Shown here piece after piece: positions 57,225 to 61,486 of a DNA stretch of 64,000 bases. The stretch is from an uncultured bacterium (GTDB lineage Bacteria > Chlamydiota > Chlamydiia > Chlamydiales > SM23-39): assembly GCA_963716985.1 (NCBI GenBank), contig OY970323.1, positions 608,001 to 672,000 of the forward strand, given 5' to 3'. The notes beneath the pieces are model-generated. The model ran no database searches. It was not told the DNA's origin and was given only the letters and a program-made list of their open reading frames with translations. Every line of letters starts with the position of its first letter. The stretch's first letter is position 1. The position numbers were made by a program, and so were the translations under genes.

Positions 57225-57311
57225 TTAAAAAATGAGTTTCTTCAGTATAAGCAATGGACTAGCCAAAAGCTTTGACCAGTCAAAAGTTCTGAATCCGTCC
57301 AGTCGCCCCCA
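57225..57311 (-). other. tRNA T-stem junction with coded peptide tail, copy 1
   Basis: WGRLDGFRTFDWSKLLASPLLILKKLIF*. Confidence 0.7.
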
Positions 57312-57415
57312 TTCTCATGGACGATTCTTGAATTCCAGCATCGTTAAGAAGGGTTCTCTCACTTGTACTGAGAGATTCATGCCATTCAACTGCAAGTACT
57401 GAATGCGTTCAGCCA

Positions 57416-57517
57416 CTAGTGCTCTGCCATTCTTTAATTTTAGGATAAATTGACTTGAGTTTATGCCGACCGTTGCCAAACTTATAATCCTAAATTTTAA
57501 CTATGACAGAGCACTAG
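57416..57517. mobile_element. MITE, copy 2
   Basis: Identical to 50211..50312; CTAG at both ends. Confidence 0.9.
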
Positions 57518-57532
57518 TGCCACTTCGGTGGA

Positions 57533-58343
57533 CTAGAACAAACTACAGGCGTTCACCGAATATAAAAAAGCTTTAATGACAGCGGAAAAACGCTCGGGCT
57601 GATCATAAGGGATCCCATGACCCGCTTCTACGATCTGTGCGATCTCCAAGCGTTGATTGAGTCTAGCAAGTTCTGCGGCTACCACAGGAGAAACAACTCC
57701 GCCAACACCACCGATGACGAGCAAGGCAGGAATAGCGAGAGTATTAATTAGCTGCCTATAGTCGGGATTTGGCGGGGTCAAAATTTCAAAGGCATGAATG
57801 CTGGTTTGAAATCTTGCCTGAGCGAATAATTCAATGAGCTCGGATGAGCGGTGTTTCTGTCGAATTCGAAGTTCAGCCAAGAAATCTTCCTTTGATTGAT
57901 CGAGGATTCGGCGATGTTGATCCGCGACATCACTCTCGTGAACTTCTCGCTGACGTTGTGGTGTCAGAAAGGTTGGATCAACCAAGACAAGCCCTCGCAG
58001 TTGCTTGGGATTTCGACTAGCGGCCAGAGCCGCGGTCATGCCTCCCATAGAATGGCCAAGTAGTACTGGGTTGGTGAGGCTGAGAGCTTCGATAAGGTTC
58101 AAGACATCGGCGGCAAGTGTGTTATAGGAGTAGCCTTGGTTCGGGGCGCTGGAGTTCCCGTGACCTCTGGCATCCGGCATGACCACATCGTAATCTTCCT
58201 CCAGTGCTCTTGCCAAAGGAATCCAACGCTCCATTCGTCGTTAGTCCATGCAGCAAAACTACAGGTTGTTTGTCGCCGCCGGTTCGGAGGTAGTGTATGG
58301 TAATCCCATTTGCTTCACAGGTCCCCGTTGTCCATCTAGCCAT
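57533..58343 (-). pseudogene. Alpha/beta hydrolase, frameshifted
   Basis: VLLHG in one frame; DARGHG, GHSMGG, AGH in another; shift near 58228. Confidence 0.88.
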
Positions 58344-58375
58344 TGCTTCCTCTGTAGATCCAAGACATAGCTCTT

Positions 58376-59228
58376 TTATGACTTGGGTAGCTTACCAGAT
58401 TCTACAATTAGTTTTTTCTCTTCTGATTTTACGCGGCGTTCGAGTTTTTTGAGGTCTTCTTCTGGAGGAAGATTTTCTGGTTTGATACCGCGCTGTCCGA
58501 GCATAGAGCGGACGCTTTCATTATTTTGAACATGCTCATTTGCTATAGCCGTTTCTCCATGTAAATCATCCTGCGATACATTGTGATTAGTCATTTCTGT
58601 CGCTAAATTTTTTGCGGCGATAGTCAGTGTAGGTAAAAAATCTGCTAACGGGCGACACTGTGTAATCCCATATTTGTTCTTCATGGTCTGCGTGCAATGA
58701 CCTCCAAAAAGAGCCTGATCGCCCTTAGAGCGAATTCGTCCAAAGCCAGGCTCGTCTACGCCGCGCTCAAATATTTTGAGAAAGAGTTTTTTCAGCCTCC
58801 CTCAGTTTTTCTCTGGTCTCTAATCTGGCTTGCAAGAGCATGCGACTTTCGATCAATTCCTGTTTGCGTGTTTGAATGGCAAAGTAGCTCTGGGCAAAAG
58901 CGATGGGTTCTTTGCGAGAGTCTCCGTTTTGAGCGATCAGATAGCAGGCATAGCGGGTTAACATGAAGTCTTCAATGGCCCGTTCTGCTCCCTTGCCGAG
59001 ACTGATCATTTTCCTGACGCCACGAAAATGATCGTTCGGATCGCAGCCAGTTGTTTTACAAGACTCTATGGCGCGCATAATCGTGGTGAGAAAGTTTTCC
59101 CACTTCGCATAACCCAATGGCTCTTGCAAGTCTCTAGCAAACCAAAATTCAATGCTTTCTTCGGGAAGCATTTGTGCTAGACTGTCAAAATGACTTTGCA
59201 ACTTTGTAATGATCTCGTTGTTAAACAT
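58376..59228 (-). pseudogene. dinD: DNA damage-inducible protein D, frameshifted
   Basis: WFARDL...LGY..WENF, LTRYACYLIAQNGD.RK..IAFAQSYFA; continues ERGVDE..GDQALFGG in a shifted frame near 58769. Confidence 0.88.
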
Positions 59229-59325
59229 GGCAATGACCTGTTGGAATAAAATTTTTTGAAGAAATCATAGCGGAAAGAGACAAAACTCTCCAATCAAAAG
59301 TTCTGAATTCGTCCAACCGCCCCCA
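59221..59325 (-). other. tRNA T-stem junction with coded peptide tail, copy 2
   Basis: WGRLDEFRTFDWRVLSL...CHV*, stop overlaps dinD start. Confidence 0.7.
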
Positions 59326-59418
59326 ATAAAAAAAGGCCCCGCAAAAGCGTTTTTTTATTTTTCAGATGCCACCAACGCAGAAGGGGGTATCTGAACTGTT
59401 ACCGAATAGCTTGAAGGA

Positions 59419-60504
59419 TTAGAATTCTTTTCCGAGCAATAAAAGCATGGTGACATCGTCTACTAGACCTGGCTGATAGAGATTCAGCGTTCTATGCTGT
59501 ATTTTTGGGGATGAGAAGTCAATTTTTTTCAAGTCCACGTAAAATGTTTCACTCTGGGTGGGCTGGAGAAAATATTTTAAATTTTTATTATCCCTAATAG
59601 CGATCCACCAAGTGGGAAATGATTTTTCGTTGGGATTAGTGGGATCATAAGGAGAACTAAGGGATCCCGGTGGTTCCACTACGGTGTCAATCATCGAAAA
59701 AACAGCAGCGATGGCCTTGGCTGTGTTAGAAACATTATCCTGCGGTAGAGTTTTAAGAAAGGCAGCCAACCGCACAAATCTTGATTCACTATCAACATCT
59801 CCCGGAAGAGGCAGAAGATTGGGGTTGCAATCTGTAACGGGAAAAACGGGAGGGTTGAAATAGCAGTAATGAGCTAAATTTGCAACCTGATCGGAATACT
59901 TGGGTTCATTCGTCGTAACAGCTGGACCATTAGGTGGACCAATAGGACGGATAATCGGGGTGGGCGGTGAGGTGAATTCAATAAGTGCTGAATCGCCGGT
60001 GGCGTCATGCAGTGTTACGTGCACAGGCAAAACGAAATAATCGATGACATCTCCAAAGATGTTAAGGGTTGCTATTGCAGACACAGCTTCCGCAACCGTT
60101 GCAAAATTATCCAGAATGTAGCGCGACAAATAACTTACGGCGAGTACAGGGTTTCCTGCTGCAGGTAATGGATAAGTTGCACCTTCGAACCACAACGTGG
60201 CAACAGACAATCCTTTTTCGTTTATCCCATCAACCACAGCAAGAGGTTGAATAGTGGCGCCGCTTACGACTACACTTCCATAGCGCGATACCCACTGCAG
60301 AGGTGGAAGAGAAGGGTGAGCAGGATCAGAGGGAGACGTGTTGCTAAGTCCCCTTGGATTCAACACAATATTCGTGGGAGGTTGGAATGAAAGATCTAAG
60401 GTTCTCGCAGAAACGACAACATTGTTATTAGCAATGGTGACCTCAGAGCAGGCAAATAGCTGAAAATCTGCAAAAAAAAGTAACCCAAAACAAAGGAACT
60501 TCAT
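59419..60504 (-). CDS. Exported choloylglycine hydrolase / linear amide C-N hydrolase (Ntn)
   Basis: Signal peptide then Cys (FA-CSE), ARTLD, DGINEKGL, TNEP, LPGD..SESRFVR. Confidence 0.88.
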   Translation of the reverse strand: MKFLCFGLLFFADFQLFACSEVTIANNNVVVSARTLDLSFQPPTNIVLNPRGLSNTSPSDPAHPSLPPLQWVSRYGSVVVSGATIQPLAVVDGINEKGLSVATLWFEGATYPLPAAGNPVLAVSYLSRYILDNFATVAEAVSAIATLNIFGDVIDYFVLPVHVTLHDATGDSALIEFTSPPTPIIRPIGPPNGPAVTTNEPKYSDQVANLAHYCYFNPPVFPVTDCNPNLLPLPGDVDSESRFVRLAAFLKTLPQDNVSNTAKAIAAVFSMIDTVVEPPGSLSSPYDPTNPNEKSFPTWWIAIRDNKNLKYFLQPTQSETFYVDLKKIDFSSPKIQHRTLNLYQPGLVDDVTMLLLLGKEF

Positions 60505-60530
60505 ATTCCGAAATAAGTTGTACATATTAC

Positions 60531-61283
60531 TCACCATGTATGCCAAATCAGTGCAAGTGTGAATTGATTATTTGAAGGCTGAAGTTTTGCTGTTGTCGAT
60601 GAAACAAACGAGGTGTAGGTATTCCTAAATGACTGGTAGCTTGTGTGAGTGAATTCCGCTCGTAAACTAAGGCGCCAGTAAACAGCTTCTTCAAAACCAA
60701 ATCCATAGGAAAAGCCATTAGCATAGTGATCAAAAGTCGATTGGAGAAAAGGCGTTCCATTAGGAGCATCTAAAAGCGATTCATTTTCTTTTTCTTTGAA
60801 ACGCGCTCGAACAAAACCTAGTCGGAGATAGATCAATGAACGATCATTCACTTTATATCCTGATAGAAGGCTTACTCCATAACTAAAATCAGTAGATGTT
60901 TTAGTGTGATATGTAAATTCCCCTAATGGCTGAAAAATAGCAGTGCTTATTTTTTCATCTGCGCCGGTTAAATTGCCAAAAAGTTCAACGCCTAAGTAAC
61001 CTCGTTCTTTAATAGAGTGGCCATAACCCACAAATAGGGTGCCCAGGAACCCATCAGGGTTGACGAAGGCTTTTTCACGAAATAACAAATCGCCTAAAGT
61101 TGTTGCTTGGACATTCCTTTGAACGCTATACCAGCTATAACCGCCTCCAATTCCTAAATAAAATCCATCGCTTAAACTCAGAGTTTTTTTAGAGCTGCAA
61201 GAGGGAGCGTTCTTTTCTAGGTCATCAGCAAAACATGCCGATGAGAGGAATAGCACGGCTGTAATGAAAGAGAAGCGTGGCAT
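60531..61283 (-). CDS. Outer membrane beta-barrel protein
   Basis: Signal peptide, GFYLGIGGGY, alternating aromatic strands, LSLRAEF, terminal W. Confidence 0.82.
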   Translation of the reverse strand: MPRFSFITAVLFLSSACFADDLEKNAPSCSSKKTLSLSDGFYLGIGGGYSWYSVQRNVQATTLGDLLFREKAFVNPDGFLGTLFVGYGHSIKERGYLGVELFGNLTGADEKISTAIFQPLGEFTYHTKTSTDFSYGVSLLSGYKVNDRSLIYLRLGFVRARFKEKENESLLDAPNGTPFLQSTFDHYANGFSYGFGFEEAVYWRLSLRAEFTHTSYQSFRNTYTSFVSSTTAKLQPSNNQFTLALIWHTW

Positions 61284-61384
61284 AATTTTTTTCACTAATT
61301 CTCGAATTTTCAATATTTTATCGGTTCAGCTCCATTTCTCGGTACTTTTTTCTAAATAAATTTCAAGAAAACAGGAATACTTCC

Positions 61385-61486
61385 TTACTTTATCAGATGA
61401 AGCGGATTCCCGGTTGAAGGAAAAATCCTAAAGATTTCCAACAGTTTCTGCCAAGCAAAAGTTCTGAATGCGTCCAACCGCCCCCA
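61385..61486 (-). other. tRNA T-stem junction with coded peptide tail, copy 3
   Basis: WGRLDAFRTFAWQKLLEIFR...IK*. Confidence 0.7.

Follow-up and report, generated by a model that had tools for sequence, protein, structure and literature searches.

Attachment-site scars of serine-recombinase islands behind a chlamydial tRNA-Tyr gene, with displaced integrase tails and a candidate accessory dyad

The window analyzed here, 64,000 nucleotides of an uncultured bacterium of the Chlamydiales (GTDB lineage SM23-39; assembly GCA_963716985.1, contig OY970323.1, positions 608,001 to 672,000), carries an intact tRNA-Tyr gene and three junctions at which the antisense of a tRNA 3' end continues in frame into a short conserved peptide. 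These junctions are attachment-site (att) scars left behind tRNA-Tyr by a stack of large serine recombinase (LSR) islands, and their best explanation, which we hold with good confidence, is a tandem array of islands from an LSR clade that targets tRNA and transfer-messenger RNA (tmRNA) genes. In these islands the LSR gene points at the tRNA without a stop before the attachment site, and the integrated form of the protein ends in antisense-tRNA residues. The true tail, D/N-x-F/L-R-T-x-x-W/Y-x-x-hydrophobic and approximately 25 to 30 amino acids long, is left at the far end of the island. Coordinates are collected in Table 1.

On the minus strand the junctions translate as WGRLD followed by GFRTFDW (57311), EFRTFDW (59325), and AFRTFAW (61486), and the frame stays open past the second W for 16, 22, and 21 codons at junctions 1, 2, and 3, with stops at 57225-57227, 59221-59223, and 61385-61387; the intact tRNA-Tyr antisense instead gives WGRLDSNQRRS and a stop. 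A first-pass annotation of the same DNA had described these readings, and all were reproduced, including the change between CGA CTG and CGG TTG and the GAC/GAT difference, which lies in the D after F (GAC at 57311, GAT at 59325, and GCT at 61486). The stop of tail 2 does overlap the start of the open reading frame (ORF) at 58767-59228, but the name dinD proposed for that ORF was not supported, Pfam giving Bro-N. The arm contributed by the element (P arm) was also found after tmRNA 3' ends elsewhere in the 2.07-Mb genome (C1:1740556 and C1:1743004, with degenerate copies at 750842 and 751134), and an arm-anchored junction pattern matched 67 of 103 family genomes, compared with 0 to 1 matches per genome for a reversed control. 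The junctions are thus not a product of chance. Tyr-type and tmRNA-type junction patterns that excluded intact genes matched 59 and 115, respectively, of 401 genomes of the order, some of these matches being due to chance.

Relatives of the missing integrase show where the tails come from. PF07508 was detected in 46 of 200 genomes of the order, and many such LSR genes run antisense into tRNA-Tyr, -Asn, -Met, -Ser, -Leu, or -Phe or into tmRNA. Some of the proteins end in WGRLDSNQR, as the first-pass annotation had anticipated, but the specificity for tRNA-Tyr that it expected did not hold up, the family also targeting tmRNA and tRNAs for Asn, Met, Gln, Glu, His, Leu, Arg, and others. Among 115 loci (19 without a C-terminal hit and 17 without a T-loop), the antisense T-loop was in frame 0 in 78 of the 79 that had one. 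Repeats of gene-side sequence, sought upstream of such LSR genes at 20 loci without any peptide criterion, revealed in-frame tails, for example, WRWRDKFRTFDW and WGRLDAFRTFDW. The same design was seen in a wider sample of 80 loci from Patescibacteria, Alphaproteobacteria, Elusimicrobiota, Omnitrophota, and others. When a strict 15-nt repeat was required, 1 far-end junction was recovered among these 80 loci, because the shared core is only about 4 to 7 nt, and scanning for peptide patterns gave much noise (49 matches on the plus strand versus 36 on the minus strand). A DNA-only rule was used instead and located 38 far-end junctions in 76 loci, all of which read D/E/N-x-hydrophobic-R-T, the R-T being partly forced by the rule. 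A loose regular expression flagged 84 of 120 homologs as antisense type, and a joined tail was present in four (P0025, P0041, and P0119 by regular expression and P0074 by eye); L130 is a further naturally joined protein. Two phage and two plasmid records of relatives were all integrated forms, and one query of viral contigs returned no relative. A divergent LSR subgroup (L182, L183, L185, L186, L190, and L192) has a long, native-looking C terminus with no tRNA alongside and is possibly an unsplit form that could serve as an outgroup.

The window itself retains part of such a gene. A tblastn match at 57294-57401 (E value, 8e-8; 58% over 36 amino acids versus the LSR of L019) is in frame with tail 1, and junction 1 is therefore an attP-like tandem joint. 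No intact LSR was found in this genome, in which PF07508 had no match and tblastn with 17 LSRs gave remnants only. Close homologs of nearly full length were seen at just 5 places in 103 genomes and are rare, 3' remnants are common, and arrays without an integrase, such as this one, are therefore normal; an LSR remnant lies upstream of 6 of 53 junctions. Relatives P0001 and P0074 have Resolvase, Recombinase, and zinc-ribbon domains (Pfam), and a model of P0074 has the LSR fold (9dxh_A, Z of 17.6, root mean square deviation [rmsd] of 17.6, and 455 aligned; 6dnw_A, Z of 14.2, rmsd of 8.3, and 215 aligned). Three proposals of the first-pass annotation were borne out by the gene-into-tRNA layout, the remnant, the joined and antisense-tail homologs, and the far-end junctions: that attP lies inside the 3' end of the LSR gene, that integration swaps the C terminus, and that the window tails are displaced tails of related islands.

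It is possible, but in our judgment unlikely, that the swap acts as a switch of direction and takes the place of a recombination directionality factor (RDF), the form with the P tail integrating and the form with the antisense tail excising. The geometry would give each form at the right time, and in the SPbeta integrase F532 (C-terminal) and the RDF helix act at the base of the zinc-ribbon domain (ZD) and coiled coil in the available part of that report (PMC11722253). However, the tails of integrated forms are arbitrary, and many of these forms end at position 0 or shortly before it (coordinate zero is the G of the D codon, tRNA nucleotide 61 antisense, with the LSR gene on the negative side). 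Loss of function therefore fits better than a second function.

The site of crossover was examined in 20 non-redundant non-chlamydial attL/attR pairs, drawn from 26 of the 38 DNA-rule pairs. The two sites were identical in 20/20 pairs at -13 to -10 (-12 to -10 being forced by the rule), in 10/20 at -9, and in 16/20 at -7 but in only 2 to 6 of 20 at -8 and -6 to -2. A GTYC/GGAY symmetry and two symmetric arm-to-arm sites center on -10.5, which corresponds to tRNA nucleotides 72/71. Cutting probably occurs there, and the crossover would then map to the acceptor stem rather than to the T-stem, where the junction had been placed at first. GRLD, likewise read as T-stem, is mostly encoded by the element, whose own arm mimics the tRNA; the chlamydial P arm mimics its target up to +1. 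As judged by eye, other genomes likewise have chimeric arms (WRWLD in tmRNA arrays) and junction 1's CGA CTG allele, which indicates that these bases belong to the element.

With the center at -10.5, GAAC is found at +5 to +8 in attB and at +10 to +13 in attP, the P-side ZD motif being 5 bp further out than the attB copy. The invariant T-loop may thus be read as the ZD motif of attB, at positions 11 to 19, with the same motif at 16 to 24 in attP. The LI integrase has its ZD motif at 11 to 19 in attB and at 16 to 24 in attP, according to the portion of that study at hand (PMC3783163). No conserved motif was found at -34 to -26 in the 46 genes, and a compact attP with two ZD arms was not seen there. 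Two loci, L229 (G379:C48:3547-3594) and L237 (G194:C31:4385-4432), have two P-type arms head to head at the canonical attP spacing. Across 62 intact loci at least 8 kb long, no inverted second att copy was seen.

Outside its attachment site, the LSR gene carries a conserved 9-bp inverted repeat with a 34-nt spacer (dyad), with arms at -147 to -139 and -104 to -96, about 85 to 135 bp before the crossover. GAAC is present at -100 in 43 of 46 non-redundant genes although the residue before Asn varies (Q, S, A, or T), and among 489 columns its third-position G gives the strongest synonymous signal (z, 11.9; mean, 1.2; standard deviation, 1.7); two further third-position peaks are at codons -147 and -144. 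The dyad is the best of all position pairs from -300 to -12, with 9/9 complementary bases in 19 genes, 8/9 in 15, 7/9 in 8, and fewer in 4, so that 42 of 46 genes have at least 7/9; one of the remaining four (L116) has it shifted by 33 nt. Arm positions change in pairs (-142/-101 is GC in 23 genes and TA in 17; -141/-102 is AT in 19 and GC in 18), and they do so several times on the tree of LSR genes, a quick version from which 4 of the 46 rows were omitted as short. Over all loci, 68 distinct dyads had a gap of 42, compared with at most 6 for any other gap from 25 to 60, and a search with free spacer found 34 nt in 35 of 38 sites (31 of 103 genomes). The dyad was also present in 4/4 out-of-sample loci, with new variants.

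Twelve loci detected through the dyad but missed by protein search retain just 48 to 86% of the other invariant bases. Homology in these loci mostly starts at -146 to -165, and several of them, some sharing a lineage, reach the att core at 144 to 146 nt; one locus, L172, has two noncoding 9/9 copies of the dyad. In remnants detected by protein, dyad bases were retained at 440 of 468 positions versus 1,089 of 1,218 other invariant positions (P = 0.004), a difference that carries little weight since most of these loci were dyad-picked. The P arm of the chlamydial tRNA-Asn clade, sought for independent covariation, was found in 0 of 5 genomes.

The dyad motif is the att-arm motif. Its arms are 1 bp further out than in attP and it has no inner motif, which argues for a binding site rather than a crossover site, the assignment that we somewhat favor from sequence comparison; the dyad could serve the integrase as an accessory site. 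Of its two arms, the window retains only the right one, which is joined to a further P arm and interrupted by a miniature inverted-repeat transposable element (MITE). Noncoding arms of tmRNA islands (L224, L225, L227, L230, L268, and L269) carry the dyad with an A-tract/T-tract pair in the spacer and a second, 10-bp inverted repeat beside the crossover, and a Leu/Phe LSR subfamily has a similar dyad with a 41-nt gap.

Two other roles for the dyad were considered. It could be a hairpin of RNA or of single-stranded DNA, or else a quasi-palindrome whose perfection is maintained by template switching. Complementarity extends into inner bases that are specific to a lineage and at times differ from the P arm (L166, L178, L179, and L191), and minimum free energy (MFE) folding pairs the arms in 38 of 46 genes. 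However, in RNAalifold just 5 pairs closed a 38-nt loop and an inner stem was not predicted, nor was there a consistent G-U bias. The near-constant spacer and the identity with the att-arm motif also speak against a hairpin, as does the agreement of the A/C before GAAC between dyad and P arm in 19 of 20 cases (from few independent lineages; L114 disagrees), and we consider a hairpin or quasi-palindrome doubtful. An operator, to which the integrase would bind near the 3' end of its own gene and so block transcription, would account for a location in the coding region and for two perfect motifs lacking central att features, but the dyad is kept at a near-fixed distance from the core in noncoding arms that have no gene to regulate. 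Thus, an operator function seems improbable.

The displaced tail appears to serve as DNA and as protein. Tails were taken from 77 pattern matches, of which 53 arm-like ones were kept (23 unlike the arm and 1 short match were removed, none of which read FRT), leaving 46 non-redundant in-frame tails; a second chlamydial set held 32 non-redundant tails from 34, and a third consisted of 20 non-chlamydial tails. The chlamydial core is nearly invariant in its codons (TTC, 43/46; AGA, 44/46; ACT, 44/46), against the preference of LSR genes overall for TTT (113:67) and their use of AGA for only 85 of 345 Arg codons, which indicates that the FRT core is a DNA motif. Downstream of it the frame is protected. 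Codons 9 to 18 contain 1 stop in 460 codons, compared with 33 and 35 in the other frames, and are open in 45 of 46 tails (shuffle mean, 23.6; maximum, 35 in 5,000), 29 of 32 second-set tails (mean, 13.9; maximum, 23), and 18 of 20 non-chlamydial tails (mean, 8.5; maximum, 17); stops return after codon 18. Codon 11 is hydrophobic (L/I/F/M/V in the main set) in 41/46, 23/32, and 17/20 tails, via many codons, and with an aromatic codon 8 this persists across phyla, with the third position of Thr free in non-chlamydial tails. The first-pass annotation had proposed that its reading would fail if conservation in a larger alignment were at the nucleotide level only; this is so for the chlamydial core and not for the tail beyond it, which is under coding constraint. 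The tail is thus doubly coded, with the first ∼24 bp an att arm and at least the next 10 codons kept open and amphipathic.

That the tail is only an att arm, its peptide a by-product of DNA recognition in an enzyme that works equally well with either end, is for these reasons quite improbable: neither the open frame, replicated twice, nor the cross-phylum codons 8 and 11 would be expected of it. In its favor are the nearly invariant TTC AGA ACT amid mixed Arg and Thr codons, the absence of shared sequence among tails beyond codon 11, which also tells against our reading, and solved LSRs that mostly align only to residue ∼473 to 481, before the tail. No convincing match to a solved structure extended over the tail. 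AlphaFold predicts two helices in a joined tail (487-495 and 499-513; pLDDT, 78 to 83) versus a pLDDT of 29 to 42 for an antisense tail, a contrast that favors a folded joined tail but is suggestive only, as it compares two different proteins from two alignments, with 49 tail fragments in alignment A1 misaligned. A tail-focused homolog search returned the query only.

Taken together, these features are consistent with the following scheme. The tail would be a folded two-helix extension needed by the fully active enzyme, and intact integrase would be made mainly from the excised circle or a tandem joint, which would favor integration and stable residence. The dyad may act in cis by binding integrase and so compensate for the ZD motif that the P' arm lacks. 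More broadly, we tentatively propose, as a possibility rather short of an even chance, a cross-phylum LSR clade for which the T-loop is the attB motif and direction is set in the absence of an RDF, through a swappable tail and a ∼150-bp P' arm with an accessory dyad needed for synapsis.

Several observations weigh against this scheme. The sequences are related to one another, and counts overstate independence. Two of the 46 tails stop at codon 8. The dyad is absent (gaps 36 to 48) or below 7/9 in 3 of 46 genes (L161, L180, and L162), its spacing to the core is 146 in only 71 of 97 cases, and a terminator takes its place on the P' side of two of the three window junctions. No intact dyad was found in this genome, and the dyad is not visibly needed by every unit. 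Chlamydial attL and attR are identical to +1, and the crossover is placed there by homology and recurring non-tRNA alleles rather than directly. No excision joint was found at any junction in four low-depth contig sets.

In the array around the junctions (Table 1), a terminator-like hairpin is next on the plus strand after junction 2, and a similar hairpin and a ∼100-nt repeat follow junction 3. The fusion at 57394-57415 is probably a deletion between two motif copies, and the adjacent MITE is absent from one contig of sequencing run X2. Older units would be pushed rightwards as one insertion followed another at the tRNA 3' end, interspersed with a second class of island that uses the anticodon loop. 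Junction 1 would be a new P arm joined to the LSR end of an older unit, and junctions 2 and 3 would abut terminator-bearing, non-autonomous ends. The integrase would have been lost from this genome, leaving the array inert unless helped in trans.

Table 1. Features of the tRNA-Tyr array in the window
Feature	Position	Strand	Remarks
Intact tRNA-Tyr(GTA), integration target	46418..46500	+	Antisense reads WGRLDSNQRRS, then stop
3' half copy of tRNA-Tyr from anticodon loop	49594..49656	+	ARAGORN calls tRNA, Rfam does not
Group II intron (reverse transcriptase 55622-56725)	55115..57208	+	End 17 nt beyond tail 1 stop
Junction 1: P arm and displaced integrase tail, 28 codons from W	57225..57311	-	Inferred crossover dinucleotide 57309-57310, placed by homology
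3' remnant of LSR gene, one in-frame stop, in frame with tail 1	57312..57401	-	tblastn
Fourth, degenerate P arm fused onto dyad right arm	57394..57415	-	Repeat family D9, spacing 110
Dyad right arm, 8/9 bases; left arm missing	57395..57403	-	
102-nt MITE inserted at CTAG	57416..57517	.	29 near full-length genome copies
Cargo between junctions 1 and 2: alpha/beta hydrolase and split Bro-N gene	57533..59228	-	Pfam
Junction 2: P arm and displaced tail, 34 codons	59221..59325	-	Inferred crossover 59323-59324
Cargo between junctions 2 and 3: choloylglycine-hydrolase-family protein and outer-membrane beta-barrel	59419..61313	-	
Junction 3: P arm and displaced tail, 33 codons	61385..61486	-	Inferred crossover 61484-61485

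The half copy of tRNA-Tyr at 49594-49656 is probably the attR of the putative anticodon-loop class, and a second half copy is located near 63750-63790. Junctions of this second class have a conserved ∼130-nt arm and a tRNA-Tyr half from the anticodon loop (49466-49656 and 63614-63790, with a 20-nt motif also at 46700) and probably belong to a different island family. This half-tRNA repeat class in the same array could recall ordinary tyrosine-integrase tRNA duplications, but that origin for the three junctions, or chance repeats, was refuted by the in-frame LSR remnant, the identical junctions beside intact LSRs, and the far-end junctions found by the DNA rule, and has a negligible probability.

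Further elements were noted in and beyond the array. The ∼100-nt repeat follows tRNA 3' ends or terminators at 46528-46629, 49690-49790, 61522-61615, 62682-62763, and 63802-63891; it holds sense and antisense copies of the tRNA 3' end/T-loop, has no Rfam match, and is also found near tRNA-Leu (C1:325787) and tRNA-Phe (C1:429722) and at C1:63993 and C1:674435. A 195-nt insertion with 29-nt inverted ends (56702-56898) splits the reverse transcriptase of the group II intron, and contigs of three runs are without it. An IS66 element and a MITE copy split an ORF within 50211-53049. Toxin-antitoxin-like cargo pairs are present at 48651-49390, 61953-62511, and 62916-63588, as is a Schlafen/AlbA_2-RecG-C protein. 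Elsewhere in the genome, C1:1738600-1743004 has a tmRNA 3'-end copy and two LSR tails ∼1 Mb from the tmRNA gene (C1:758382), an array perhaps parted from its target by rearrangement, and 3' remnants of other LSR subfamilies (C1:1023346-1023462, 1343837-1343956, and 1758796-1759011) lie beside tRNA-Ser and two tRNA-Leu genes.

Integrases whose attP lies in their own gene, so that integration changes or splits the protein, are known from Myxococcus phage Mx8 (IntP/IntX) and the SSV1-type split integrases. Those enzymes are tyrosine recombinases, unlike the enzyme described here, a serine recombinase by its domains and fold. Extra recombinase-binding dyads beside the crossover are familiar from the res sites of resolvases, small serine recombinases that resolve rather than integrate; to our knowledge, accessory sites are not a recognized feature of LSRs.

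The closest precedent is DsiB of the Dehalococcoides ssrA islands (McMurdie 2011), where, in the part of the paper available, the 3' end of the integrase gene overlaps attL, tails vary, and islands occur in tandem, some without an integrase (PMC3146451). It was proposed there that full function may be limited to enzyme made from the circle or from a tandem joint (PMC3146451), and the tail swap, the headline of the first-pass annotation, is thus largely right but already in print as a hypothesis. DsiB differs in belonging to a six-gene module with DsiA, in having a published 15-bp P-side motif unlike the arm here, and in an insertion point placed midway in the T-loop versus nucleotides 72/71 here, although its end-of-identity method would also place the chlamydial sites in the T-loop (PMC3146451). 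As far as the DsiB text was available, it contains no tail selection, ZD geometry, or dyad, and a locally conserved site within dsiB marked in its figure S2 may bear on the dyad (PMC3146451). The LI/A118-type integrases of Listeria (Rutherford 2013) and the SPbeta integrase share domains and fold with this clade, which, in contrast to them as described in the parts available, has attP inside int, a ZD motif in only one arm per site, a separate two-armed upstream dyad, and a swappable C-terminal extension past the known fold (PMC3783163 and PMC11722253). The word tRNA is absent from the main text of Durrant 2022 as far as it was available (PMC10083194), and the available part of a further report has nothing on this layout (PMC12884075). 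A literature search, with subscription papers mostly outside its reach, found no paper on tail selection, T-loop-as-ZD geometry, or an intragenic dyad. The novelty here lies chiefly in the dyad, together with the dual coding and the att geometry.

Serine integrases are prized because one protein and two 40- to 50-bp sites suffice. If the scheme proposed here is true, an accessory dyad and a self-edited tail would represent a different control logic for these enzymes. As deposited in databases, these integrases have the integrated tail, and the dyad would be lost on codon optimization, so that inactive enzymes or incomplete sites may be what mining pipelines clone. It could be possible to retarget a clade that reads the invariant T-loop from one tRNA gene to another. 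The scars themselves show the build-up of cargo at tRNA-Tyr and tmRNA hotspots in environmental chlamydiae.

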